Assembly (NCBI GenBank): GCA_038896535.1
Contig: JAWACY010000002.1
Span: forward strand, 160,001-224,000
DNA: 64,000 bases
Source: Candidatus Anstonellales archaeon
GTDB lineage: Archaea; Micrarchaeota; Micrarchaeia; Anstonellales; J096
Reading direction: 5' to 3'
In this document: positions 35,433 to 49,333 of the stretch, piece after piece
Layout: every line of letters begins with the position of its first letter
Position numbering within the stretch: position 1 is the first letter of the stretch
The notes under the pieces: model-generated
Database searches by the model: none
What the model saw: the letters and a program-made list of their open reading frames with translations, nothing else
Told to the model about the DNA's origin: nothing
Made by a program: the position numbers and the translations under genes

Positions 35433-36230
35433 ATGGCAGGTTATAAATTGTTAAATTTTTTATCTTTGCCTAATTCATATCCATACAAATATGCATTAAT
35501 ATTCTTTCCATACGAGAAAAGCACTGGGTTTATGAAAGGCACTTCTAAATCATGGAAAGAAATCATAAAGCAGAGCCATAATATAGAAACATACGATTTT
35601 GAGCTTGGTACAAATGCTGTAGAAAAAGGCATATCTGCATTCTTAATAAGTAATAAGGATGATTTAAAAAATGTCATTGAAGAAACTAAAAAGCATAAAG
35701 CATTCAACATATTTATTGGAGGAGAGCATACTATAAGTTACTGGTCATCTAATTTTTTTCATTTCAATACATTTTTCTTATTCGATGCACATGCTGATTG
35801 TATGAATTTATATAAAGGCAAGAGCCTTACCCATGCAACATGGTTAAGAAGATTAATAGAAAAAAAACAAAAAAACATTGCTTTTTATATATCTGGATTG
35901 AGGATAGCAAGTAAAGAAGAACATTTATTCCTAAAAAGGCATAATGTTAAAACAAGCAAGAGTTTTATAAAATTGCATAATAAGGATATTTACTTATCAA
36001 TAGACCTTGATGCACTTGACATGTCAGCAATGCCTTGCTGCTCTAATCCAGAAGTTGCTGGTTTTTCATGGCACGAATTAATCAATAACATAGCATACTT
36101 AATTAAAAACAATAATGTTGTTGCTGTTGACATAGTTGAGCATAGGCCTATCAAAGGTTTAGAATTTTATAGCTATGCTGTTGGATGGTTAATATATAAA
36201 ATCCTTTGCCTTAAAGAAAAATATGGCTAA
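35433..36230 (+). CDS. speB: Agmatinase (ureohydrolase family)
   Basis: GGEHTIS, FDAHAD, SIDLDALD, NPEVAG, DIVE. Confidence 0.85.
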   Translation: MAGYKLLNFLSLPNSYPYKYALIFFPYEKSTGFMKGTSKSWKEIIKQSHNIETYDFELGTNAVEKGISAFLISNKDDLKNVIEETKKHKAFNIFIGGEHTISYWSSNFFHFNTFFLFDAHADCMNLYKGKSLTHATWLRRLIEKKQKNIAFYISGLRIASKEEHLFLKRHNVKTSKSFIKLHNKDIYLSIDLDALDMSAMPCCSNPEVAGFSWHELINNIAYLIKNNNVVAVDIVEHRPIKGLEFYSYAVGWLIYKILCLKEKYG

Positions 36231-37359
36231 TGTATTAATTGACAATGTAAATGCTTTTAATGTTGAAGAAATTGACACGGGGGAAGTTAAAAAAAGAGAG
36301 GAAGATTCAATAAATAACGGAAGGATAAGTTATAATCCAAAACAACTTGAGAAATGGTCTGGCATTTATGGCATAGTTGGCAATCATTCTGCTGTTCATA
36401 TATGCAAGTATACAAAAGACAGCTTACATGGTAAAGGGGGATGCTATAAAAATAAGTTTTATGGCATTGACACCCATAAGTGTGCTGAGATGAGCCCAGC
36501 AGCTGCTTGGTGTCATGAAGCATGTGTATTCTGTTGGAGGCCAATGGAGTGGTATTCAAGAATTAAAATGCCTGAAAACATGGTTGATAACCCAGAAGAG
36601 ATAATAAATGAAACAGTAAGAGTAAGAAAAAGGCTTTTATCTGGTTTTGGCGGAGATAAAAATGTACAGAAGGAGCTTTTCAGAAATGTTTATGATTCGT
36701 TTCCTAGCCATTGGGCTATAAGCCTCAGCGGAGAGCCTACCATATACCCTAAAATAGGACAGCTAATAAAAATATTAAAAAATACAGAAGGAGTAAAAAG
36801 TGTCTTTCTTGTGAGCAATGGGCAAGAGCCAGATGTATTATTAAAAATGAAAGAAGATAATGCATTGCCAACACAAATTTATATAAGCATAGATGCAAGC
36901 AATGAGGCACTCTTTAAAAAGATCAATAGAAGCTTATACAAAGATGGCTGGCAGAGATTAATGACTACTATAAAAGAAGTGCTGCCAAAGCTACCAACAA
37001 GAAGAGTACTCAGATATACATTAATAAAAGGCATGAATGATATGGAATATTTAGATAAAGAATATGCTGAAATATATGAGAAAAGCAAAGCTGATTATAT
37101 AGAAATCAAAGCTTACATGTTCCTAGGCCAGAGCAGACAGAGATTAAATATCGAAAATATGCCAACATTTGAATATGTTAAATCTTATGCAGAAAGATTA
37201 GTAAAAATCATGCCAAATTACAAAATAATAAATGAAGAAAAAAGGGCCAGAATTGTATTATTGAAGAGGAATGACAGCCCATTCAACGACAGAATAAAAA
37301 ACCCAGATGCATTAAAATCATTAAAAGAAAATGCAACATTGCCAAAAGAATGGGAATAA
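36223..37359 (+). CDS. taw1: 4-demethylwyosine synthase Taw1 (TYW1), radical SAM
   Basis: HSAVHIC, CYKNKFYGIDTHKC, CHEACVFCWR, AISLSGEPT, EIKAYM. Confidence 0.95.
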   Translation: MANVLIDNVNAFNVEEIDTGEVKKREEDSINNGRISYNPKQLEKWSGIYGIVGNHSAVHICKYTKDSLHGKGGCYKNKFYGIDTHKCAEMSPAAAWCHEACVFCWRPMEWYSRIKMPENMVDNPEEIINETVRVRKRLLSGFGGDKNVQKELFRNVYDSFPSHWAISLSGEPTIYPKIGQLIKILKNTEGVKSVFLVSNGQEPDVLLKMKEDNALPTQIYISIDASNEALFKKINRSLYKDGWQRLMTTIKEVLPKLPTRRVLRYTLIKGMNDMEYLDKEYAEIYEKSKADYIEIKAYMFLGQSRQRLNIENMPTFEYVKSYAERLVKIMPNYKIINEEKRARIVLLKRNDSPFNDRIKNPDALKSLKENATLPKEWE

Positions 37360-37441
37360 CAAAATGCTTTTATATTTTATTTCTTTTATTCCACATTTAC
37401 TCTCCTCACCTCAACAAAATAATAACAGCTGCTGGATATTT

Positions 37442-37892
37442 GTAAGAATAGCCATGTATAATCAAATTTGCCTTCTTACGAAGGGCTTAATAGGGGCTGG
37501 AAGTTTGTAAGAAGGCGTGTGTATAAGGGTTAGCGCCTTCTTACAGGGGAGGATAATTGTAAGAAGGCATGTGTAATAGTCAATTTGCCTTCTTACGAAG
37601 GGCTTAATAGGGGCTGGAAGTTTGTAAGAAGGCGTGTGTATAAGGGTTAGCGCCTTCTTACCACAGGGAATAATAGCGGCTGGATAATTGTAAGAAGGCA
37701 TGTGTAATAGGGTTAGTGCCTTCTTACCGGGAAGTTTGTAAGAAGGCGTGTGTAATAGGGTTAGTGCCTTCTTCAATAAGCGTATAATAGGGGCGGGATG
37801 TTTGTAAGAAGGCGTGTATATAAGGGTATTGCCTTCTTACAGGGGGGGAAGATTGTAAGAAGGCATGTTTATAAGGGTTAGCGCCTTCTTAC
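37442..37892 (+). repeat. Array 1: eight 37-38 bp palindromic units GTAAGAAGGC-N17/18-GCCTTCTTAC with related 10-28 bp linkers
   Basis: Units start at 37442 (degenerate), 37507, 37559, 37624, 37690, 37738, 37804 and 37855. Linkers are 27, 14, 27, 28, 10, 28 and 14 bp; linkers 1 and 3 are identical. Confidence 0.95.
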
Positions 37893-37949
37893 CACAAGAG
37901 TAAAGTAAAATTTATATATTCTTCTATTAAAATTTATTTGGTGCTTATT

Positions 37950-38690
37950 ATGAAACTAACATATCCTTCTGCAAAGGGTTTTGCTAAGGCATTAGAAGTT
38001 GTATGGAATATAGTAGATGAAGGGACTTTTAAAGTATCAAAAGAGGGCCTAAGACTGCTTGCAATGGATCCCAGCCAGATATCAATGATCGTTTTTACAA
38101 TGCCAAAAGAACTTTTTTCTGAATTTGATATTACAACAGAGACAAAAAATGTTGGGCTTGATTTGGCTTATACAAAAACAATACTAAAAACGGCAAGACA
38201 GCAAGAAACAATAACTCTGGAAGAAAAGGAAAAGAAGCTTGTAATAACATTCAAAAGCCAGAAATCAAGAAGGCAGTTCGTTGTGCCATTGCTTGATCTT
38301 GGAGAGGGGCCAACAAAAGAGCCAAATATAGATTATAATAATTTTGTAATAATAAAAGCAAGCGCACTGGATGGCATAGTAAATGATGCATCCTTAGCAA
38401 GCCATTATGTAAAATTAGTAATAAGCAATGATGGCCTTGAAATGTATGCAAAAAGTGAAACAGGAGAAAGCAATGCAGTTTTTGAAAAAGGAGATGAATT
38501 AATTGATATAAAGGCAGAAAATGGGGCAAAGGCCTTATACCCAGTCAAATATCTGAATGATATAATAAAAAGTTTGCCAAAAGATTCTGAAGTAAAATTA
38601 TATATAGAGACTGATAAACCATTAAAGTTGGAATCTAATGTAGAAGGAGCAAAAATAAGATATTATTTAGCTCCAGCAAGCGAGTCATAA
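37950..38690 (+). CDS. pcn: DNA polymerase sliding clamp PCNA
   Basis: AMDPSQISM, DKPL, YYLAP; typical length. Confidence 0.95.
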   Translation: MKLTYPSAKGFAKALEVVWNIVDEGTFKVSKEGLRLLAMDPSQISMIVFTMPKELFSEFDITTETKNVGLDLAYTKTILKTARQQETITLEEKEKKLVITFKSQKSRRQFVVPLLDLGEGPTKEPNIDYNNFVIIKASALDGIVNDASLASHYVKLVISNDGLEMYAKSETGESNAVFEKGDELIDIKAENGAKALYPVKYLNDIIKSLPKDSEVKLYIETDKPLKLESNVEGAKIRYYLAPASES

Positions 38691-38735
38691 GAATTTTAAA
38701 TTCTTTGTAATATTTAAATATAAAGGTGGTATTAG

Positions 38736-39137
38736 ATGGACCTAACTAGAATAAGCCCTTATAAACACATATTAAAGACAGCAGAAATGCTTAAAGCAAT
38801 GAGCTTAGAAAAGCCAAGCTTTGTTGATTTTGTTAAATCTGGGGCACATAAACAAAGGCCGCCAGAGCATGAGGACTTTTTTTATATTAGGGCTGCTGCA
38901 ATATTAAGAAAAGCTGCGAAAATGCCTGTTGGCGTAAATAGATTGAGAAAGGCATTTGGAGGAAGGAAAACAGGAAGGGTTAAACCAGAGCATAAAAGAA
39001 AAGCTGGGGGAAAAATAATAAGAGCAGCATTACAAAATCTTGAAAAGCTTGGATTATTGAAAAAAACTGAAAAAGGCAGAGTTATAACGAACAAGGGCAT
39101 GCAATTGCTTTCAAAAGCAGCAAAGGAAGCTAGATAA
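38736..39137 (+). CDS. rps19e: Ribosomal protein eS19
   Basis: FVKSG.HK.RPP, FYIRAAAILRK, G.IIRAALQ.LE, GRVIT. Confidence 0.95.
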   Translation: MDLTRISPYKHILKTAEMLKAMSLEKPSFVDFVKSGAHKQRPPEHEDFFYIRAAAILRKAAKMPVGVNRLRKAFGGRKTGRVKPEHKRKAGGKIIRAALQNLEKLGLLKKTEKGRVITNKGMQLLSKAAKEAR

Positions 39138-39138
39138 A

Positions 39139-39396
39139 ATGACAAAAGAGGATGAAATGGAAAAAATTGCAAAAATAAAGGCAACTGCATTGCAGTTATT
39201 CGAGCCAGAGGCATATACGAGATTTATGACTGTTATGCAGTATAACAGCGAAAAAGCAGTAAAGGCACTTGAATTATGTATGCAGTATTTCTACAAAAAA
39301 CAAAGGAAAATAAATGATGAAGAATTAAAAAATATATTATTTTATTTATCGCAAAATGAAAGGAAAGAGGGAAGCATACAAATAAAAAGAAAATGA
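39139..39396 (+). CDS. PDCD5-like DNA-binding protein
   Basis: PEAYTRF, KINDEELKNIL, C-terminal IKRK; canonical position after rps19e. Confidence 0.8.
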   Translation: MTKEDEMEKIAKIKATALQLFEPEAYTRFMTVMQYNSEKAVKALELCMQYFYKKQRKINDEELKNILFYLSQNERKEGSIQIKRK

Positions 39397-39435
39397 ATAA
39401 AAAAATAAATGATTATGATTTTATAGGGTGTGAAT

Positions 39436-39612
39436 ATGGCAAAAAATAACCTTGGAATAAAAATGAGACTTGCAAAAAAAACAAGGCAGAATAGGAGAGT
39501 GCCAGTATTTGCTTTTTTGAGAAGTAAAAGAAAAGTAAGGAATAATCCAAAACAAAGGAATTGGAGGACAGATAAAATAGGCACTAGAAATTGGAGAAAT
39601 AGAGGTAGATAA
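39436..39612 (+). CDS. rpl39e: Ribosomal protein eL39
   Basis: K.RLAKK.RQNRRVP, RNWR. Confidence 0.93.
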   Translation: MAKNNLGIKMRLAKKTRQNRRVPVFAFLRSKRKVRNNPKQRNWRTDKIGTRNWRNRGR

Positions 39613-39613
39613 A

Positions 39614-39889
39614 ATGACAGATAAAAAAGATAAAGGTAAAGAAAATGAAGAGATTGTTATGACAATAAATTTAAGGAGAGCGTATGAAAAGCCAAGGACA
39701 AAAAGGTTAAAAACTGCTGTAAAACTGTTGAGAGATGCAGTAAAAAGGTTTGCAAAAGTTAATGTTGTAAAAATATCAAACAGCATTAATCAGTTGTTCT
39801 TCAAAAAAAGCATAAAAAAGCCACCAAGAAAATTGAAAATAAAGGTAATAAAAGAAAAAGAGCAAGGAAGAGTTGAAAAAATAGAATGA
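39614..39889 (+). CDS. rpl31e: Ribosomal protein eL31
   Basis: TINLR, KR...AVK, VKIS..IN, KPPRKLKI. Confidence 0.92.
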   Translation: MTDKKDKGKENEEIVMTINLRRAYEKPRTKRLKTAVKLLRDAVKRFAKVNVVKISNSINQLFFKKSIKKPPRKLKIKVIKEKEQGRVEKIE

Positions 39890-40548
39890 TAAAAAAAACT
39901 TCTTATTTTGGAAATCCACACATAGGGATTTTCTGCTTTTGTAATGATAAGGTTGCTATATTGCCCTATAACAATAAGTTTTCAGCAATTATTAAAGAAG
40001 CGCTTGATGTTGAAATTATAGAAACAACAATATCACAAAGCCCATTTATTGGTATTTATACTGCTGGCAATAATGATATATTGATAATGCCAGACATAAT
40101 CTCAAGTTCTGAACTTACGAAAATAAAAAATGGCCTGGATGGAATTGCTGATATTTATTTAATAAAAACAAACATGAATGCACTTGGCAATAATATTGTT
40201 GTAGGAAAAAAGGCAATACTTATAAATCCAAATCTCATGCCTTATAAAGATAGCATAGAAGACATTTTTGGCATTGAGACAATAGCAATTGATATAGCAG
40301 GGTATAAAACAATTGGCTCCTTGCTTGTTACTAATGATAAAGGTTTTGTTGTCTCATACAAAGCAGGTTTAGAAGATTTGGCGCGTTTAGAAAAAATACT
40401 TGGAATAAGAGGAAAAAGAACAAGCATAAATTTAGGCCTTGCTTTTCCTAAATTGGGTATAATAGCAAATAAAAAAGGCATTGTATTTGGTGAATTAACA
40501 ACTGGAATAGAAATAGCCAATGTAATTGAAGGGCTTGATGTTCAATAA
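39886..40548 (+). CDS. eif6: Translation initiation factor aIF-6
   Basis: GNPHIGIF, ALGNNI, TNDKG, ANKKG, TTGIE; operon position. Confidence 0.93.
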   Translation: MIKKTSYFGNPHIGIFCFCNDKVAILPYNNKFSAIIKEALDVEIIETTISQSPFIGIYTAGNNDILIMPDIISSSELTKIKNGLDGIADIYLIKTNMNALGNNIVVGKKAILINPNLMPYKDSIEDIFGIETIAIDIAGYKTIGSLLVTNDKGFVVSYKAGLEDLARLEKILGIRGKRTSINLGLAFPKLGIIANKKGIVFGELTTGIEIANVIEGLDVQ

Positions 40549-40563
40549 TATTTTGGTGGTATT

Positions 40564-40884
40564 ATGCAAGAAATAACATATGAAGATTTCTTGAAAATGA
40601 ATCTTGTTGTTGGTAAAATAATAAAAGCAGAAAGATTGGGCAATAAGATAATAAAGCTCGAAGTTGATATTGGCAATGAAATAAGAGTTATTGCTGCTGG
40701 CATTGCACATTATTACAAAGCTGATGAAATTATAGGAAAAAATGTCATTATTGTAGAAAACATGAGGCCAAAAACAATAATGGGCATAGAAAGCAAAGGC
40801 ATGTTGCTTGCATGCATTGATGGAGATAATGCAGCATTAATAACAACAGATAAAGAAGTTAAAGCAGGCACAAAAGTATCTTAA
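40564..40884 (+). CDS. tRNA-binding OB-fold protein (Trbp111/MetRS C-domain-like)
   Basis: ITYEDFLK, VDIG, AGIA..Y, N..P..IMGIESKGMLLA. Confidence 0.9.
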   Translation: MQEITYEDFLKMNLVVGKIIKAERLGNKIIKLEVDIGNEIRVIAAGIAHYYKADEIIGKNVIIVENMRPKTIMGIESKGMLLACIDGDNAALITTDKEVKAGTKVS

Positions 40885-40946
40885 AAATGTGGATGGTTTA
40901 AATATTAAACCTACATATTTAAATTTTTAATCTGGGCTATTATGAT

Positions 40947-42407
40947 ATGGCTAAAAGTAATGATATAAATGAATATAACGAGAATATCGAAGAAAATATT
41001 GATAATATCAATAATGCGTTGGTAAGCAATAATTATAAATGGGGCTTTAAGGATGATGCTGAATACGAATACAAAGAAAATCTAAAATTGGGAGAGAGCC
41101 TCGTAAAGAATATAAGCAGAATAAAAAAAGAGCCAGATTGGATGCTTGAATTAAGATTAAAGGCAATTAAAGCATTTTTTCATTTAGAGCTGCCAAAATG
41201 GATGCATAATATAGATATTAATTATGATGATATAACATATTATGCAAAACCGAAAATAAACAGTAATGCAAAAGCTAGTTCATGGGATGATGTGCCTGGT
41301 TATATTAAAAATACATTTGAAAAACTTGGAATTCCAGAAGCTGAAAAGAAAGTGCTTGCTGGTGTAGCAGCACAATATGAAAGCGAAGTTGTATATGAAA
41401 AAGTAAGGAGTGATCTGGAAAAATATGGAGTAATATTTTGCAGCATGGACAGGGCATTAAAAGAACATGAAAACATTGTAAAGGCATATTTTTCAAAACT
41501 TGTGCCGTTTTATGATAATAAGTTTGCTGCATTGAATACTGCATTATGGAGTGGTGGGAGCTTTTTGTACATACCAGAAAACGTAAAAATTGAGCAGCCA
41601 TTACAAGCATATTTCAGAATAAACATGCAGGGCATTGGCCAGTTTGAAAGAACATTGATAATAGTTGAAGAAGGAGGAGAAGCTCAATACATAGAAGGCT
41701 GTTCAGCGCCAGTATATAGCAAAGCATCTTTGCATGCTGCTGTTGTTGAAGTATTTGCAAAAAGGCATTCAAAAGTCAGATATACAACAGTGCAGAATTG
41801 GAGTAAAAATGTTTATAATTTAGTAACAAAGAGAAGCATTGCTTATGAAAATGCATACATAGAATGGCTTGATGGGAATATAGGAAGCAAATTAACTGCT
41901 AAATATCCATGCATAATACTTGCTGAGCCAAATGCAAAAGGTAAAATCATAAGCATAGCATATGCTGGGCAGGGGCAAATAATAGATAATGGGGCAAAAA
42001 TAATACATTTAGCAAAAAATACAAGCTCAAACGTTATAAGTAAAAGCATTTCAAGCAATGGGGGAAGGGCAAGCTATAGAGGGCTCGTTAAGGTAATAAA
42101 AGGGGCAAAAAAGAGCAAGGTTTCTGTTAATTGTGATGCATTATTGCTTGATGAAAATAGCAAAACAGATACATATCCAAATATACATATAGCAGAAAAG
42201 GACATTTCAATAGCGCATGAAGCAAGGGTAGGAAAAATAAGTGATGAGCAGCTTTTTTACTTAATGAGCAGGGGAATAGATAAAGAACAAGCAAGGACTT
42301 TAGTTGTTATGGGCTTTCTAGAAGAATTTACAAAAGAACTGCCTTTGGAATATGCAGTTGAATTAAACAGGCTCATAAGCCTTGAAATGGAAGGGAGCGT
42401 TGGCTAA
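40947..42407 (+). CDS. sufB: Fe-S cluster assembly protein SufB
   Basis: KKEPDWML, AQYESE, DNKFAALN, GQFERTLI, YIEGCSAP, HEARVGKI, LPLEYAVE. Confidence 0.97.
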   Translation: MAKSNDINEYNENIEENIDNINNALVSNNYKWGFKDDAEYEYKENLKLGESLVKNISRIKKEPDWMLELRLKAIKAFFHLELPKWMHNIDINYDDITYYAKPKINSNAKASSWDDVPGYIKNTFEKLGIPEAEKKVLAGVAAQYESEVVYEKVRSDLEKYGVIFCSMDRALKEHENIVKAYFSKLVPFYDNKFAALNTALWSGGSFLYIPENVKIEQPLQAYFRINMQGIGQFERTLIIVEEGGEAQYIEGCSAPVYSKASLHAAVVEVFAKRHSKVRYTTVQNWSKNVYNLVTKRSIAYENAYIEWLDGNIGSKLTAKYPCIILAEPNAKGKIISIAYAGQGQIIDNGAKIIHLAKNTSSNVISKSISSNGGRASYRGLVKVIKGAKKSKVSVNCDALLLDENSKTDTYPNIHIAEKDISIAHEARVGKISDEQLFYLMSRGIDKEQARTLVVMGFLEEFTKELPLEYAVELNRLISLEMEGSVG

Positions 42408-43433
42408 ATGGAAGAAATGAAAATAGATGGCATGGAACAATATTTAAGAAAAAGCGCTTATTATGATGAGTATACAGCATTAAAAAGCACAGAATTTTAT
42501 GAACTCATAAGAGCTTTCAATATAGAATTTTTAAAAAAGAAAAATGAAATGAAAAACAAAAAAAACAAAATAAATGACAACATTGCCAATCATTTAAAAA
42601 GCGATGATAATTATGAGACACAATCTTTGATAGATGATTATTTGAATGCTTTAAATAAAGAAACAATGCAAATAGAAAAAACAAAAGCAAAAAATTTTGA
42701 AATAAATGAAAATAAAGGAGGGGCTTTGAGAAAAGAATATGTAATAAAGCATGATGCAATATTAAACATTTTACATGATAAAAATTTTATTGGAACCGAG
42801 CATTTTTTTATATCAGATGGCATCAATGTTGAATTAAACATCATTTATTATGCTGATTTTATTTATGCTTCCAGATTTTTCTATATTGGTAATGATGCAG
42901 ATGTTAAAATAAATATTATGGGCATGAATAAGCATTTTATTGAGAACAGAACATTCATAAATTTTAATGGGATTAATGCAAATGCATTTGAGAATATTTC
43001 AATTTTATCATCAAATGGAAGCATAAGAACTTATACGCAATTAAATCACAAAAAACAGCAAAACAAATCAGATAGTAAAGTGCACATAGCATTATTTAAC
43101 AATGCCTCTTGCTCAATAGAAGGCATGATAAAAATATATGAAAATGCATTCAATAGTGATGCATTTCTTGACCAAAAAGCACTCGTCTGCTCAGATAATG
43201 CAAAAGCTTTTAGCTATCCATCTCTTGAAATAGCAAACAATAATGTGAGGGCAACTCATTCTTCATCAATAATGAGGGTTGAAGAAGAAGACCTCTTTTA
43301 TCTTAGAACAAGGGGCTTAAACTACAAGCAAGCATATGCAGAAATAGTAAAAAGCTTCCTTGGTTTTAATGATATTCTATTGGAGCGTTTAAACAAAAAA
43401 ATTGATGAGAATATTTATTCACTTATAAGTTGA
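42408..43433 (+). CDS. sufD: SufD-like protein
   Basis: PSLEIANNNVRATHSS, LFYLRTRGL; between sufB and sufC. Confidence 0.85.
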   Translation: MEEMKIDGMEQYLRKSAYYDEYTALKSTEFYELIRAFNIEFLKKKNEMKNKKNKINDNIANHLKSDDNYETQSLIDDYLNALNKETMQIEKTKAKNFEINENKGGALRKEYVIKHDAILNILHDKNFIGTEHFFISDGINVELNIIYYADFIYASRFFYIGNDADVKINIMGMNKHFIENRTFINFNGINANAFENISILSSNGSIRTYTQLNHKKQQNKSDSKVHIALFNNASCSIEGMIKIYENAFNSDAFLDQKALVCSDNAKAFSYPSLEIANNNVRATHSSSIMRVEEEDLFYLRTRGLNYKQAYAEIVKSFLGFNDILLERLNKKIDENIYSLIS

Positions 43434-43453
43434 TATAGCTTGAAGGTGATCAA

Positions 43454-44194
43454 ATGGCATTAGAAATAAAAAATTTACATGTATATGTTGAAGATAAGCA
43501 TATAATAAAGGGCATAAATGCAAAATTTGATGATGGAAAGGTTATTGCTATAATGGGGCCAAATGGTTCTGGAAAAACAAGTTTAGGCTATGCAATTGCC
43601 GGGCATCCCAGCTATGTTGCAAGTGGGGAAGTTATATACAATAGTAAAAATATTTTAGAGTTAAAGCCAGAAGAAAGGGCAAAAGAAGGCATATTTCTCA
43701 GCTTTCAAACGCCCCCTTTTCTTGAAGGCATAACAATACAGCAACTTTTAAAGAAATCATTTATAGCAAGGTTTAACCTAGAAGAACAAAGCATGGAAAC
43801 ATATAGAAGGCTCAATGAAGAAATAAATAATGCTATTAATATATTAGGGTTAAATAAAGATTTCATAAAAAGAGAAGTAAATAGAAATTTTTCTGGCGGG
43901 GAAAAGAAAAAAGCAGAAATGTTGCAAATGCTTATATTAAAACCAAACCTTGCATTGATAGATGAAATAGATTCTGGCTTGGATGTAGATTCACTAAGAT
44001 TAGTCACAAATGCAATAAATAAACTTAGAGATAACAAAAGGATATTTATTGTTATAACACATTATAACAGAATTCTGTCATATATAAAACCTGATGTTGT
44101 ATTAATAATGAAAGATGGCATGATAAAAAAGCAAGGCGATGAAAGGCTGGCAAAAGAGATAGAAGAAATTGGTTATGCTGGATTAGATAATTGA
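43454..44194 (+). CDS. sufC: Fe-S assembly ABC ATPase SufC
   Basis: MGPNGSGKT, GHP.Y, FSGGEKK, DEIDSGLDVD, ITHY.RIL. Confidence 0.96.
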   Translation: MALEIKNLHVYVEDKHIIKGINAKFDDGKVIAIMGPNGSGKTSLGYAIAGHPSYVASGEVIYNSKNILELKPEERAKEGIFLSFQTPPFLEGITIQQLLKKSFIARFNLEEQSMETYRRLNEEINNAINILGLNKDFIKREVNRNFSGGEKKKAEMLQMLILKPNLALIDEIDSGLDVDSLRLVTNAINKLRDNKRIFIVITHYNRILSYIKPDVVLIMKDGMIKKQGDERLAKEIEEIGYAGLDN

Positions 44195-44277
44195 ATTAGA
44201 TAATTAGATTAGAAACTAGCTGACTTAATTTTAGCAGTTAAGTTAAGGTTTTAAACACTTATTTAAAATTTTATTTC

Positions 44278-45444
44278 ATGAGCAAGGCATTATATTTAAG
44301 AAAGGTCATAGAATCGGCAAATATATATAATAAAACATTCGAAATAAATGAAAATGAAATATATGGCAGCTCTCCTCCTTCAATCTTTATAGGAAGCTAT
44401 GGTTATCCATATGTTTATGCAGGGCCTTTGATATCAAAGCATGAAGAATGCAGTATTTTTGACACGCCAGAGCATTGGCTAAAAGAAAATCTTAAACAAC
44501 ATGACATAATAAAATTTAGATTAAGTCTTTTAAGAGGGAAGAAAAAAACAAGAGTAAGTGAAAATACAAAATTCATTGAAAATTTAAAAGAGTTAGCATT
44601 AGCTAATAAAGAGCCATATACAATAATGGAAATAAAGAACATGAGTAGCAATATTAATTTTAATAAAGAAATTGAGGAGCATGCACTATATGGCCCATCA
44701 GCAGAGATAAATAATTTTTATATTGATAATACTTATTGGAATCCAAAATTAGAGAAATTTTATTACGATAGAGATGCAGAAGCAAGCACAGCAGTAAAAG
44801 AGCTTTATTTAAATGGCGTGCCTTTTTCTTCAATAACAAAATGTTTTTCTGCTGGTTGCTTTGGGATAGAGAAAAACAGAAAACTCGTGCCAACAAGATG
44901 GGCAATAACTGCTGTTGATTCAATGCTTGGGAATATGCTGCTTAAGAATGTTAGACAATATGAGATAATTGACGAATATAGGATTTATAACTACAATGCT
45001 CTGTTCAATAGCTATTACATACTTCTTGTGCCATCTCATTGGATTTATGAGTGGTTTGAAGCATTTTTACACATTTATGGAGACGAAGAGCTGATATTTA
45101 ATGATGCTGAATTTCATAAAAAAACTGGCTATTCTTCAGTCGGGGGTTGTTTTTATACATGCAGGTTTGCTGTTTTAGAAGCATTGGAAAGAATGAAAAT
45201 ACAGGCTGGTTGTTTTGTTTTCAGAGAGGCTTATAAAGGGTATGTTCCTTTAGGTGTTTTTAATGTCAGGGAATGCGTAAGAGAAGCTATGAAAAAGCAG
45301 TATTTATCTTTTAATACAATGAACGAGGCACTTTCCTACCTAAAATCAAAGTTGAAAATTCCAATGCAAAGATATCTGAAACAAAGCGTGCTATTAAATC
45401 ATTATATAAGTAAAAGGCAGTTTGGGCTGAGTGCTTATCTTTAA
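44278..45444 (+). CDS. nreA: Nre-family DNA repair protein with C-terminal PIP-like box
   Basis: GSSPPSIFIG.YGYP.V..GPL, RKLVPTRWAITAVD, PLGV..VRE; terminal QFGLSAYL. Confidence 0.9.
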   Translation: MSKALYLRKVIESANIYNKTFEINENEIYGSSPPSIFIGSYGYPYVYAGPLISKHEECSIFDTPEHWLKENLKQHDIIKFRLSLLRGKKKTRVSENTKFIENLKELALANKEPYTIMEIKNMSSNINFNKEIEEHALYGPSAEINNFYIDNTYWNPKLEKFYYDRDAEASTAVKELYLNGVPFSSITKCFSAGCFGIEKNRKLVPTRWAITAVDSMLGNMLLKNVRQYEIIDEYRIYNYNALFNSYYILLVPSHWIYEWFEAFLHIYGDEELIFNDAEFHKKTGYSSVGGCFYTCRFAVLEALERMKIQAGCFVFREAYKGYVPLGVFNVRECVREAMKKQYLSFNTMNEALSYLKSKLKIPMQRYLKQSVLLNHYISKRQFGLSAYL

Positions 45445-45555
45445 TTCAGCACTTAATATCTTCATCATTCTATGCATATGCATAGTTCAGCGTTCTCGCC
45501 TTCATCACATTTTGTAAATTAATTAGAAGGCATTAAAAATGCAATAGAAAGAAAT

Positions 45556-46287
45556 TTATCCAGGCAGTAATCTAAGCTCATCAAACTTCTTACCGCCTTT
45601 ATTAATCTGTATAAGGACTGAGTTCACAAATTTAAACTCTATGTATAGTTTTCCTTTTGCTGGTATTACAAATGACCCTGCTGGATAAACAACCATTAAA
45701 TCATCATCAATATAAGATACAAATTGAATTTTTACATCTGTGCCAGGCTTTAACCTTATTTCATTATTAGATAGGCCATTATCTGTTATGTTTATTATTA
45801 AAACATCACTTGGCAGCTCCTTTTCTCTTTGTTTAACTTCAAACATTATTTCTTGACTCCAATAAGGCTTTGTTTTTATAAACCCATAAACTCTGGCATA
45901 ATATGTGCCAGTTTCATTTACATTTATCTGCCTTGTCATTAATCCTGGCGCATTGATTTCAAAAGGTAAAGTTTGAAACTCATAATCATTAATACTAGAT
46001 GGGAATACTACGCTGTTTTTGCCATAAACAATTATTAAAGGCACAACAGTCGGGCTTGAAGCATAAACTTGTGCTGTTATGTTTATTGGCTCGTCTAAAA
46101 AGTACTCTTTCTTGTAATCAGTTATAATAATGTTATAAAACTCTTCTTCTTGTTTTTCTGGCAGTGTTTGGCTTTCATTTAATGATTCATTTTTCTGCTG
46201 TTGCTGTTGCTGCTGGCCAAAACAACCAAAAAGCATTAATAACAATACCAGCAATAAAGAAATAGCAAAAATGTTGTATTTTTGCAT
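45556..46287 (-). CDS. Putative lipoprotein/surface protein
   Basis: Hydrophobic signal ending LFGC, poly-Q linker, beta-rich domains. Confidence 0.7.
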   Translation of the reverse strand: MQKYNIFAISLLLVLLLMLFGCFGQQQQQQQKNESLNESQTLPEKQEEEFYNIIITDYKKEYFLDEPINITAQVYASSPTVVPLIIVYGKNSVVFPSSINDYEFQTLPFEINAPGLMTRQINVNETGTYYARVYGFIKTKPYWSQEIMFEVKQREKELPSDVLIINITDNGLSNNEIRLKPGTDVKIQFVSYIDDDLMVVYPAGSFVIPAKGKLYIEFKFVNSVLIQINKGGKKFDELRLLPG

Positions 46288-46335
46288 AAAAAAAATAAGA
46301 GCAAATATTTAAAATATTTTGGTTTTTATTTTATT

Positions 46336-46941
46336 ATGGACTTTTTTAAGATTTATACAATATTCATTTTTATATTATTAATTTCTGCGTTTCTCACGCC
46401 ATTTTTTGCTTTTTATGGATATAAAGGCATAGCATCATTCTTTTATAATGCGTTTGCTCTTACATGCCATCAATACCCATATAGAAGCCTTGCCTTATTC
46501 CCATTAGATAATAGCATAAATAATTGCATAACAAAAGAAGGCTTACCTGTTTTTACTATGTACACAAAAATATTTGCAAAGGACTACAATGGGCCTTTCT
46601 ACTTCAATAGAAGTGAAATAGGCCTTATAAGGGCGGAGATATGCACAAAAATAAAAGAAGAGACTGGAGATATATTGATAGGCTATAAATTTCCTGTATG
46701 CGCAAGGGATTTAGGCATTTTCATGGGTATGGCATTAACAACATTGGCTTTTAGAAGAGGCGGGGAAAATAAAGATGAAATAAGAATGGCGTATATAATT
46801 TTGCTTATTATTCCACTTGCAATAGATGGCTCAGGCCAGTTTCTAGGATTTTGGGAAAGTACAAATGACATAAGGATCATTACTGGCTTATTATTTGGGG
46901 CAGGGATAACGCTTTTATTCGCAAAAACATTGAACTGGTAA
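46336..46941 (+). CDS. DUF2085-family membrane protein
   Basis: CHQ.P.RS, PVCARD.GI, P.AIDG..Q, ESTN..R.ITG. Confidence 0.85.
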   Translation: MDFFKIYTIFIFILLISAFLTPFFAFYGYKGIASFFYNAFALTCHQYPYRSLALFPLDNSINNCITKEGLPVFTMYTKIFAKDYNGPFYFNRSEIGLIRAEICTKIKEETGDILIGYKFPVCARDLGIFMGMALTTLAFRRGGENKDEIRMAYIILLIIPLAIDGSGQFLGFWESTNDIRIITGLLFGAGITLLFAKTLNW

Positions 46942-46942
46942 T

Positions 46943-47968
46943 ATGGAAAAATTTTCATCTAGGCTTGCTTTATTGCTTGCCTTAATTGGATCTGCTGTTG
47001 GCTTAGGCAACATATGGAGGGTTTCCTATCTTTTCTCATTTTATGGCTCTGCTTTTCTTATTTCTTATATTGTATTCGTTATAATAATTGGCTTGCCACT
47101 AGTTTATTTAGAATTAAAATTATCGGAGCGTTATAAAAAACCAGTAAAAGAACTTTATTCCATATTCGCAAAAAAGCATAAATTAAGCTTCTTCAAATAT
47201 GTGTATTTAATGCCATTAATAACGCTTTTTGTCTTGTCAACATATTATTCAATAGTGCTTGGACAAGTTTTGACTAATATTATAGACATACATATTGGTA
47301 GCTTATTCCTTGTTTGGGCCATAACTATTTATGCAGTATTAAATGGTATAAAAGGCATAGAAAAAGTAAACAATGTATTTATGCTTCTTTTATTTATCTT
47401 ACTTTTGTATTTATTAGCAAATGTAAAAACTTTGCCAAACCTGTTAGCATTTGAAACAAAAGATATTATAGAAAGCATAAAACAAGGCTTGGCACACGTT
47501 TTATTTTCACTTAGCGTTGGGACTGGCCTTCTCTATACTTATTCAATATATTCAAAAAAATCAAATACTTTTGAGAATGCATTTATTGTAAGCCTTTCTG
47601 ATACTCTTGTTGCGATCATATCATTAATTGTTATATTTTCAATGGCCCCACAACCAGACATATTCGTTGCTTTTGAAGGAATAAAAAACAAGTTTTTTGA
47701 AATAGGCCAGCCATTTTTATCATATGTTTTTTTCCTAGCCCTATTTTCTGCTGGCATAACATCGTTAATAGCACTTGCAAAATTTTTATATGATAATGGC
47801 AATATTTACACACTACTTACTGCATTTATATCTTCAGTAATTTTATATTTTCTCCCTCCTGTTATAATACAATTTCTCGATTCAGTATTAGTAACAAGCC
47901 TTTTTTTGATTACATTGCCTATAACAGTCATTGTATTTTTAAGCCTTTTACGAGATAAAAAAAATTGA
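46943..47968 (+). CDS. Sodium:neurotransmitter symporter (NSS/SNF) family transporter, short
   Basis: GSAVGLGNIWR, GSAFL, GLPL..LE, GIEK, FSLSVG; only 341 aa. Confidence 0.82.
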   Translation: MEKFSSRLALLLALIGSAVGLGNIWRVSYLFSFYGSAFLISYIVFVIIIGLPLVYLELKLSERYKKPVKELYSIFAKKHKLSFFKYVYLMPLITLFVLSTYYSIVLGQVLTNIIDIHIGSLFLVWAITIYAVLNGIKGIEKVNNVFMLLLFILLLYLLANVKTLPNLLAFETKDIIESIKQGLAHVLFSLSVGTGLLYTYSIYSKKSNTFENAFIVSLSDTLVAIISLIVIFSMAPQPDIFVAFEGIKNKFFEIGQPFLSYVFFLALFSAGITSLIALAKFLYDNGNIYTLLTAFISSVILYFLPPVIIQFLDSVLVTSLFLITLPITVIVFLSLLRDKKN

Positions 47969-47983
47969 TAATTTAAATACTTT

Positions 47984-48688
47984 CTATTCATACATGCTGT
48001 TTTCTTTATCATGTTTTGCTATTTCCTCTTCTGCTTTAATTACCTCCTGCTCTGAAAGCAAAAGCTCCCTTGTATCTATATTAAAAGAGTACATTTTCCC
48101 AATCGTTTTTAGCAATTTCTCTGTTGCTTTTGCATCAGACAAGCTTTGCTCCTGGTGTGCTATTAATGCATAAGTTGGAAAACCAGAGCTCTGTGCCTTT
48201 ATATATAATAAAGATCCTGCCCCTGTTATTGCCCCTTCATCAAATGCATTTATTTTCAAATTATGAAATTTTTCCTTTAAATAATCTTTACTTGCAATAT
48301 AATAAATTCCCTTTTCCCCTTCAAGCGTCGATAATAAAATGCCTATTTCAGAAACATTGAAGTCTTTTGCTAAATCCAATATTGCATCTGCTGTTTTATT
48401 TGTTGCTGATAATGGCAAGCCTATTTCAGATAGCACTACAATCATATTTAACTTTTCATTTGCCATTATTCTAACTGGAGGCATTGCTATGCTATTATGT
48501 ACAGATATAACAGGAGCAAATAAATCACTACTAAAATAACCTATAATTTCAAAATTAAGTTTTTCAGTTAAATATAAGCCAGCAACTATTGGAACTAAAC
48601 TTGGAGAAGGCATACAAACAATTAATGTCGGTTTTTTCAATTTAATTTCTGTTGCTCTTTTAAAATATATAATATCAACTGATGCCAT
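47984..48688 (-). CDS. PAC2-family proteasome assembly chaperone homologue
   Basis: PTLI...P...LV, PPVRI, G.ITG..., IDT.EL, C-terminal MYE (HbYX-like). Confidence 0.8.
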   Translation of the reverse strand: MASVDIIYFKRATEIKLKKPTLIVCMPSPSLVPIVAGLYLTEKLNFEIIGYFSSDLFAPVISVHNSIAMPPVRIMANEKLNMIVVLSEIGLPLSATNKTADAILDLAKDFNVSEIGILLSTLEGEKGIYYIASKDYLKEKFHNLKINAFDEGAITGAGSLLYIKAQSSGFPTYALIAHQEQSLSDAKATEKLLKTIGKMYSFNIDTRELLLSEQEVIKAEEEIAKHDKENSMYE

Positions 48689-48746: not shown

Positions 48747-48845
48747 GGGCCAGTAGCTCAGCCTGGCGGAGCGACGGTCTTATAAGATCAGCTCTGCTAC
48801 ATCTAAGACAGCCGTAGGTCCTGGGTTCAAATCCCAGCTGGCCCA
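48747..48845 (+). tRNA. tRNA-Ile(TAT) with 25-nt intron at 37/38 (48785-48809)
   Basis: Acceptor GGGCCAG/CTGGCCC-A; ACGGT-CTTATA^AGATC...ATCTAAGAC^A-GCCGT; canonical BHB (CTTA/TAAG helix, 3-nt bulges TAA and ACA). Confidence 0.9.
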
Positions 48846-48847
48846 TA

Positions 48848-49105
48848 GTAAGAAGGCGCTAACCCTATTATGCACGCCTTCTTACAATCATCCCGTCCCT
48901 ATTATTCCCTGTAGTAAGAAGGCACTAACCCTATTATGCGCGCCTTCTTACAATCATCCAACCACTTTTATTCCCTGTAGTAAGAAGGCAATGCCCTTAT
49001 ATATGCGCCTTCTTACAATCATCCCGTCCCTAATATACGCTTGTGGTAAGAAGGCGCTAACCCTATTACACACGCCTTCTTACAAACTTCCAAACCCTAT
49101 TATAG
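48848..49105 (-). repeat. Array 2: four palindromic units of the same family as array 1, inverted, exact 66-bp period
   Basis: Units start at 48848, 48914, 48980 and 49046, followed by a partial linker; begins 2 nt after the tRNA-Ile discriminator base. Confidence 0.95.
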
Positions 49106-49333
49106 ACTTTGGTTGGGGGGGTAATGGTAGTGGAAATGCTTCTTAATCTTAATCTTAATCATTTAATCTTTTTGATAGGAAAGGGCATGAGTGGAAAAGC
49201 CATAATGGCTTGATAAGAATCAAAAGGCACAATAATCAAATAATCAAATAACAACACAATGGCATTAAATGGCATTAAATTAAGATCAATAGCATTAAAT
49301 AGTATTAATATCAATAATAAAACACAATAATTT

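Follow-up and report, generated by a model that had tools for sequence, protein, structure and literature searches.

The eight hairpin units found between taw1 and pcn in a window of 64,000 nucleotides (the whole stretch analysed here) from a Candidatus Anstonellales archaeon are a stray, or orphan, member of a repeat family that is at home behind tRNA genes. By combining a relaxed search for the hairpin arms with a covariance model (R1, built from 64 distinct units), 69 units were counted in the genome, distributed over 16 arrays of one to eight units each, the arrays at the end of contig C2 and at the start of contig C4 being taken as one. Thirteen of the arrays follow tRNA genes, always with the same polarity. 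The explanation that best accommodates these findings, which we hold with moderate confidence, is that the array belongs to a BIME-like, tRNA-linked, non-autonomous DNA repeat that would be tolerated in tRNA trailers, grow by slippage and spread ectopically.

In genomes of the small size and compactness seen in DPANN archaea, repeats are seldom found. The host genome (Micrarchaeota; 751,790 bp in five contigs, 32% G+C, rated 91% complete), which is represented in runs from hot-spring metagenomes, is approximately 91% coding, and the family fills approximately 4 kb of it. The almost exclusive location of such a family at tRNA 3' ends points either to targeted insertion or to an unrecognised step in the handling of tRNA transcripts.

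The array between taw1 and pcn

The unit consists of 10-bp arms, GTAAGAAGGC and GCCTTCTTAC, that enclose a loop of 17-18 nt, and consecutive units are joined by long or short linkers. In the following list the strand given for the repeat is that of its C-rich ('tRNA-sense') strand, which at 37413..37892 is the minus strand of the window.

36223..37359, plus strand: taw1, with radical-SAM and Wyosine_form domains, left neighbour of the array
37413..37892, minus strand: whole orphan array, a decayed terminal linker and eight hairpin units
37442..37479, minus strand: unit 1, left arm decayed (GTAAGAATAG), weakest match to model R1 (26.6 bits)
37507..37544, minus strand: unit 2, arms exact, 18-nt loop
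37559..37596, minus strand: unit 3, arms exact, loop of the AAATTGAC type
37624..37661, minus strand: unit 4, arms exact, identical to unit 2
37690..37727, minus strand: unit 5, arms exact
37738..37775, minus strand: unit 6, right arm GCCTTCTTCA, its last two bases decayed (..CTTCA)
37804..37840, minus strand: unit 7, arms exact, 17-nt loop
37855..37892, minus strand: unit 8, arms exact, with the pcn promoter region next to it
37938..38690, plus strand: pcn (PCNA), with PCNA_N and PCNA_C domains, right neighbour of the array

The exact pattern GTAAGAAGGC-N17-18-GCCTTCTTAC is present in six of the eight units, with none expected from 100 shuffles, and model R1 recovered all eight on the minus strand, so that the eight units placed by the initial annotation between 37442 and 37892 are borne out, six of them as exact and two as decayed copies. 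The array itself begins earlier than was then indicated, at approximately 37413, where a decayed linker precedes unit 1. The names given to the flanking genes agree with their domain matches, and the pair just inside the arms is indeed G-C, A-T or G.T, with A.C in unit 8.

The linkers measure, in order, 27, 14, 27, 28, 10, 28 and 14 nt, and are mutually homologous. They occur in a long form of 27-28 nt and in a short form of 10-14 nt, the latter corresponding to the 3' part of the former when read on the G-rich strand. The side of unit 8 is the end that, in the tRNA-linked arrays, faces the tRNA. The C-rich strand of the repeat is antisense to both taw1 and pcn. Both strands of the array fold far better than shuffled sequences (z-scores of −7.6 and −8.7). 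An ORF of 104 amino acids that crosses the array has no match in Pfam, and an inverted match of 8 nt was noticed in the flanks, by eye only.

Judging from relatives, the array is an insertion that has lengthened an otherwise short spacer. In the relative G003, whose PCNA is 59% identical, taw1 and pcn are also adjacent, with a spacer of 39 nt as opposed to 578 nt here. The gene upstream of pcn is not taw1 in the four other relatives examined, and the spacers upstream of pcn are of 30-123 nt in all five, again versus 578 nt, with no tRNA gene within any of them. Neither an empty-site allele nor a target-site duplication was found for the array.

A repeat family anchored at tRNA 3' ends

With genes called by a simple ORF caller and tRNAs by ARAGORN, all arrays of the family are intergenic, and all units within an array share one orientation. 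Subfamily 1, with arms [A/G]TAAGAAGGC...GGCCTTCTTAT, accounts for three arrays, all between 31 and 64 kb of contig C1; subfamily 2, with arms GTAAGAAGGC...GCCTTCTTAC, comprises all the remaining ones. There are three loop types, each common to many arrays, and the main linker classes are of 28 nt (24 of 48) and 10 nt (9 of 48). The distal end of every array is a linker-like stretch that finishes near CTTGTTGG. An array is thus bounded by a hairpin on one side and by such a linker on the other. For comparison, a MITE is a single element with terminal inverted repeats and a flanking target-site duplication.

The closest relative of a unit belongs to another array in 44 of 67 cases and to its own array in 23 of 67, which indicates both exchange between loci and local duplication. 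The latter is exemplified at the end of C2, where four units are identical, and at 153 kb of C1, where two-unit blocks alternate. Fully identical units were not found across different arrays (best value, 0.98), and there is therefore no sign of very recent movement.

The initial annotation, which had suggested a search of the full genome for copies that do in fact exist, described the taw1-pcn array of the window and overlooked both a second array and the link with tRNA genes:

48747..48845, plus strand: intron-containing tRNA, given by ARAGORN as Ile with the anticodon read as TAT, which anchors the second array
48848..49111, plus strand: second array, beginning 2 nt past the tRNA and made of four units and a terminal linker

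The C-rich strand of this second array lies on the sense strand of the tRNA, and the array is oriented opposite to that between taw1 and pcn. The tRNA, which is 99 nt long, may be a CAU-type tRNA-Ile2 or one with a misread anticodon.

Genome-wide, 13 of the 43 tRNA genes identified by ARAGORN carry arrays. Twelve of the 16 arrays begin 0-3 nt past the last base of the tRNA gene, and a thirteenth, preceded by a T-arm-like fragment, lies 83 nt beyond tRNA-Leu(UAA); without exception, these 13 have their C-rich strand on the sense strand of the tRNA. If arrays were distributed at random among the approximately 790 spacers of the genome, the binomial probability of finding at least 13 of 16 in tRNA 3' spacers would be 1.7e-14. 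In line with these values, a perfect hairpin of at least 8 bp at no more than 8 nt from the tRNA end is present on the 3' side of 12 of the 43 tRNAs versus two of 43 on the 5' side (Fisher p 0.007). Three arrays are orphans, namely those at C1:166819, which is 6 nt after a protein gene, at C1:320115, between divergent genes, and between taw1 and pcn.

The carriers (five Leu, three Arg, two Thr, two Ile and one Lys) have similar 3' halves, that is, T-arm and acceptor. The T-arm sequence was considered as the sole target and discarded, because tRNA-Thr(GGU) has the same T-arm as the carriers and no array. No target tetranucleotide is common to the 12 tRNA junctions, and arrays are not significantly enriched where genes converge (8 of 12 versus 13 of 30; p 0.31). 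Most of the tRNAs that lack an array are followed at once by T-runs, and the array-bearing ones have no adjacent T-run. With only approximately 30% of the tRNAs carrying them, the arrays are dispensable for tRNA maturation as such. None of the explanations considered below accounts for the precision of the tRNA junction, 0-3 nt.

Assembly support

That the sequence between taw1 and pcn is an artefact, namely a collapsed or chimeric repeat misplaced there during assembly, is highly improbable. The family does break assemblies, contig C2 ending and contig C4 starting inside arrays, and chimeric joints inside arrays are found in contigs from other runs, where they look like repeat cross-mapping. 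However, a contig of run X6 agrees throughout with positions 37041-37534, from taw1 as far as the second unit; contigs of runs X2 and X6 likewise pass without differences through the junction between the tRNA and the second array; and the taw1-pcn array has its units in an order of its own, its two decayed units not being copies of another array. The cross-run contigs, which derive from four runs of two studies (X3 and X5 resembling one data set), support the borders, the number of units in the taw1-pcn array and strain polymorphism being beyond the reach of such short contigs. Array-containing bins have a raised depth, as expected of a repeat.

The contig end at C2:240144-240444 and the contig start at C4:1-93 were seen to lie inside arrays of the same unit, with loop ACTAACCCTATTATGCGC. 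C2 and C4 probably adjoin each other, and the assembled array behind tRNA-Leu(CAG) probably falls short of its full length. In the same-genus genomes G002 and G003 many tRNA genes are located no more than a few hundred bases from contig ends (e.g. G003 C38:114-185, C54:85-155 and C59:345-415; G002 C13:53-125), a pattern that breakage of assemblies by repeats behind tRNAs would produce. By breaking assemblies, as at two contig ends here, such arrays may explain why tRNAs are frequent at contig ends in genomes of this kind.

Hairpins behind the tRNA genes of relatives

The family appears to be species-specific on comparison of genome sequences: the arm pattern was found in none of 40 relatives, and model R1, which gives 70 matches in its own genome, gave none in 60 relatives. 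Three genomes of the same genus (G001-G003) have different hairpins at tRNA 3' ends, 1-3 nt behind the gene. In G001, tandem hairpins of the AAACTTCTTTT-AGA-AAAAGAAGTTT type, with AATCAAGAAAAC linkers, follow two tRNA-Ala genes; in G002, GGAACCTTTTT-T-AAAAAGGTTCC and then several AAACTTCTTTCTAAGAAGTTT units follow two Ala, one Val and one Ile tRNA; in G003, an element of approximately 150 nt with three hairpins follows tRNAs for Val, Gly (two genes) and Thr. When a strict test was applied (a perfect stem of at least 8 bp starting at no more than 8 nt from the tRNA end) to 10 tRNA loci each, out of 43, 44 and 30 matches, hairpins were found on the 3' side of two, four and three of the 10 tRNAs sampled in G001, G002 and G003, respectively, and on the 5' side, taken as control, of none, one and none. 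Across the order the same test was positive for one of 38 tRNAs from 29 other genomes, as it was for the control (one of 38). The hairpin-carrying tRNAs differ from species to species. The presence, at the same place, of the congeners' own hairpin families suggests a general and undescribed phenomenon, akin to the unexplained TLRs of E. coli.

At two G003 loci behind tRNA-Thr (L141 and L147) an element of approximately 95 nt is followed by an exact copy of approximately the last 23 nt of the tRNA, element and copy being in tandem at L147. This arrangement is either the true hallmark of a tRNA-linked repeat or a misread non-canonical intron. A related fragment (..GATTTGAAGCCAAAGGGTTCAAAT) was noticed between tRNA-Leu(UAA) and its array in the host genome (C1:207430-207512). 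Elsewhere in the order, at loci L174, L183, L185 and L189, a second tRNA 3' half is seen approximately 70-100 nt past the tRNA end set by ARAGORN; these second halves reflect either introns at non-canonical positions that were misread by the program or tRNA-linked repeats.

Fold, strand and a possible role of the RNA

The ten arm pairs are nearly invariant and hence say little about the fold. Between the subfamilies, covariation is seen in the outermost pair (G-C in 47 units, A-U in eight, G-U in four, other in five). For the pair just inside the arms, the C-rich strand has A-U in 13 units, G-C in 13, G-U in three and no pairing in 35, and 24 of the unpaired cases are A.C, which is to say G.U on the G-rich strand. 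Read on the G-rich strand, the inner pair is thus standard in 50 of 64 units, and on the C-rich strand in 29 of 64, counts in which independent events are few, because the units share ancestry. The proposal of a stem-loop confined to the G-rich strand is weak: it finds some agreement in the inner pair and none in the overall folding, the z-scores of which are alike for both strands and give no guide to the choice of strand. The fold itself seems to be maintained, since the outer pair covaries and the relatives keep hairpins while changing the sequence.

Maintenance of the fold, along with the position of the arrays 0-3 nt past the discriminator base with fixed polarity in 12-13 cases, would also fit with a function of the hairpins in the RNA, either as signals for termination, processing or protection in the 3' trailer of pre-tRNA, or as small RNAs set free by RNase Z together with a nuclease specific for hairpins. 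We regard such a role as unlikely, albeit the strongest of the alternatives. The covarying outer pair, the hairpins that congeners keep at the same place in spite of the different sequence, and the complementary distribution of arrays and adjacent T-runs among the tRNAs speak for it, as does the precedent of the palindrome behind tRNA genes of Methanopyrus kandleri, for which a function as maturation signal was proposed (PMC5217627). The genome also encodes a Cas6 endoribonuclease, but the unit does not resemble the CRISPR repeat that Cas6 would recognise. Furthermore, arrays are present at only 13 of 43 tRNAs, with different carriers in different species; up to eight tandem copies are difficult to justify as a signal; three of the 16 arrays are away from tRNAs, that between taw1 and pcn running opposite to local transcription; the tRNA-sense strand has no consistent run of four or more T; and it is precisely on this strand that the extra inner pair is worse (29 of 64 versus 50 of 64).

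Comparison with known repeats and search for enzymes

The architecture of the family recalls that of bacterial REPs and BIMEs, being made of short, species-specific, extragenic palindromes in dozens of copies that are clustered in arrays, with few unit types and few fixed linkers (three loop types and linkers of 28 and 10 nt in the present case). It differs from them in the absence of a RAYT gene, in the location of 13 of 16 arrays at tRNA 3' ends and in the DPANN archaeal host. BIME units alternate in orientation and are joined by defined linkers. Here, defined linkers are present, but all units are direct, with neither alternation nor inverted doublets. REPs are described as palindromes with a conserved tetranucleotide, GTAG or CGTC, at one of their ends (PMC3733652), whereas in the present family GTAG is found beside the stem in seven of 64 units and CGTC/GACG in none of 64. 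In the papers searched, REPs and RAYTs are described for bacteria only.

Accordingly, the archaeal analogue of REP/BIME elements that the initial annotation had envisaged is recognisable in architecture, copy number and species-specificity, and the HUH or RAYT enzyme that was supposed to spread it was not found. A six-frame search of the 91% complete genome gave no match to Y1_Tnp (PF01797) at E values up to 1, and no Phage_integrase (tyrosine recombinase), TnpB or IS110 transposase. It was noted that PF00589 is unmatched throughout this 91% complete genome, which thus shows no recognisable XerA-type enzyme. An RNase Z-like gene is present (266 bits).

A true REP/REPIN-type element could still be at work if the single-stranded hairpin were moved by an HUH/Y1 (RAYT-like) or other hairpin-specific enzyme, with the tRNA 3' end as preferred target, and if its gene had escaped assembly, were carried by a plasmid or virus, or belonged to an unrecognised family. 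The incompleteness of the genome, in which two contig ends break inside arrays, leaves room for it, and the species-specific palindromes, their high copy number, the defined linkers, the insertion of an array into a conserved short spacer and the exact tRNA junction, which suggests targeting, are all in its favour; the wobble asymmetry of the inner pair (24 versus three units) would fit with one active strand. With no such enzyme among the matches, the tetranucleotide signature all but missing, no common tetranucleotide at the 12 tRNA junctions and no inverted doublets, this alternative is nevertheless improbable, more so than a role of the RNA.

The initial annotation had not recognised the repeat and had left room for a match with a described family. 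Rfam yielded none at the gathering score, nor at E values up to 1 for the four arrays so searched, and this applies also to RtT (RF00391). RtT, of tyrT/tyrV, is one of the tRNA-linked repeats (TLRs) of E. coli, which include rrA/rrB/rrF and consist of one to five tandem units directly behind tRNA or rRNA genes, are co-transcribed as trailers, have mostly no known function, and have as their hallmark a repeat whose 3' end duplicates the final 18-19 bp of the tRNA before it (PMC8144298). The present arrays are similar in that 12 of 16 start 0-3 nt past a tRNA, with one more at 83 nt, and contain one to eight units, and dissimilar in that three of 16 are away from tRNAs and that the same linkers are found behind different tRNAs. 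Mimicry of the tRNA end was sought and not confirmed, the right arm and linker giving p values of 0.09-0.96 against shuffles when compared with six tRNA 3' ends. A resemblance of the linker to the T-loop/acceptor of tRNA-Leu (ATCCCACCCC and ATCCAACCCC, respectively) was noticed separately.

The other similar case is archaeal. In M. kandleri a palindrome, CGTTA-N9-TAACG, is found approximately 10 bp downstream of approximately half of the tRNA genes and was proposed to be a maturation signal (PMC5217627). Like the present family it is species-specific and limited to some of the tRNAs, which it follows at a short, constant distance; it is, however, single, short and unrelated in sequence, and tandem arrays, linkers or non-tRNA sites are not reported for it. 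In the available text of an RNA-seq study of the same organism the word 'trailer' is absent and the palindrome is not discussed (PMC3695527). No description of tRNA-linked hairpin arrays in archaea was found in the literature searched, the scope of which did not extend to subscription journals.

With CRISPR arrays the family shares the regular spacing of a hairpin-forming unit of approximately 38 nt. It had been set apart from them on the grounds that the linkers are homologous and that no cas genes are visible. The first argument holds, and the hairpin unit has no likeness to the genome's own CRISPR repeat (p 0.43 and 0.78). The second is true for the window and not for the genome, where a complete-looking type III CRISPR-Cas locus is found on the same contig, outside the window and more than 140 kb away (C2 approximately 37,500-48,000; L213 3562-13968). 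The locus encodes Cas10 with an HD domain, two RAMP proteins, Cas6, Cas1 and Cas2, and its array (L213 9222-9705) has seven repeats of 37 nt and six unique spacers of 36-39 nt.

Origin and spread of the arrays

In the explanation that we favour, namely a tolerated, tRNA-linked DNA repeat, the home site would be formed by the first bases behind a tRNA gene, where the repeat would be read through, in the C-rich sense, as part of the 3' trailer. RNase Z could then cut the trailer off, and the repeat would do little harm even in a genome that is approximately 91% coding. Arrays may grow in place by strand slippage or template switching between the inverted arms, which do not vary, and ectopic recombination or gene conversion, favoured by the likeness of the carrier tRNAs in their 3' halves, may take units or blocks from one locus to another. 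The array between taw1 and pcn would be a block that landed in, or recombined into, a spacer normally of approximately 39 nt. It lies opposite to local transcription, and its effect might at most be that of a passive barrier of hairpins that separates taw1 from the promoter of pcn.

Some of the observations do not sit easily with tolerance and recombination. The exact junction, 0-3 nt, suggests that the site is targeted or that the hairpins have a selected role in pre-tRNA; the enzyme searches detected neither a recombinase nor a transposase that would explain movement to non-homologous sites such as that between taw1 and pcn; the lack of identical units across arrays means that no very recent movement is seen; and the seemingly maintained fold also fits with a function.

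A bolder proposal can be added. Hairpins that home to the exact 3' end of tRNAs might constitute a distinct class of non-autonomous mobile DNA in archaea with small genomes, each species of the genus having its own fast-evolving family and none of the known HUH, tyrosine-recombinase, TnpB or IS110 enzymes being used. We consider it doubtful, though worth stating. Spread would take place, for example, by template switching at replication forks stalled by tRNA transcription, or through an unrecognised enzyme, and the taw1-pcn array would be an off-target landing.

Arms as protein-binding sites and matches in metagenomes

A different role was contemplated by the initial annotation, which listed origin, partition or SMC-loading sites among the candidates. 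This finds no support in the distribution of the arrays, 13 of 16 of which trail tRNA genes all over the chromosome. In a more general form, the arms, with 10-12 nt, would be recognised by a DNA-binding protein involved in chromosome organisation, topology, or origin and partition functions, an idea that is consistent with the contrast between nearly invariant arms and variable loops and linkers. E. coli BIMEs, which bind IHF and gyrase, provide a precedent. Two unrelated-looking metagenome contigs may be added, in which the arms TGTAAGAAGGCG are shared with the family, and loops and linkers are not. The distribution, however, tracks tRNA 3' ends with no chromosome-scale pattern, and the family was found in none of the 60 relatives, although a conserved protein should keep its site; the shared arms of the metagenome contigs may themselves be due to chance, as those arms were demanded by the search. 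Clustered binding sites are thus a very unlikely explanation.

The metagenome search, which required two consecutive units, had returned three loci, two of them distinct, with the same 12 nt in the arms and with other loops and linkers. The contigs concerned (L153 696-860, L154 1130-1340 and L155) have arms TGTAAGAAGGCG/CGCCTTCTTACA, palindromic linkers of 14 nt and 32% G+C. They show very few ORFs, under any single stop reassignment, and gave no match in Pfam or Rfam and no blastn match to the present genome. Public genomes searched for both arms yielded only single hairpins in unrelated bacteria, at approximately the frequency expected by chance according to a hand estimate for this loose pattern, and were set aside. 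The search of viral sequences with the arm pattern returned two single hairpins.
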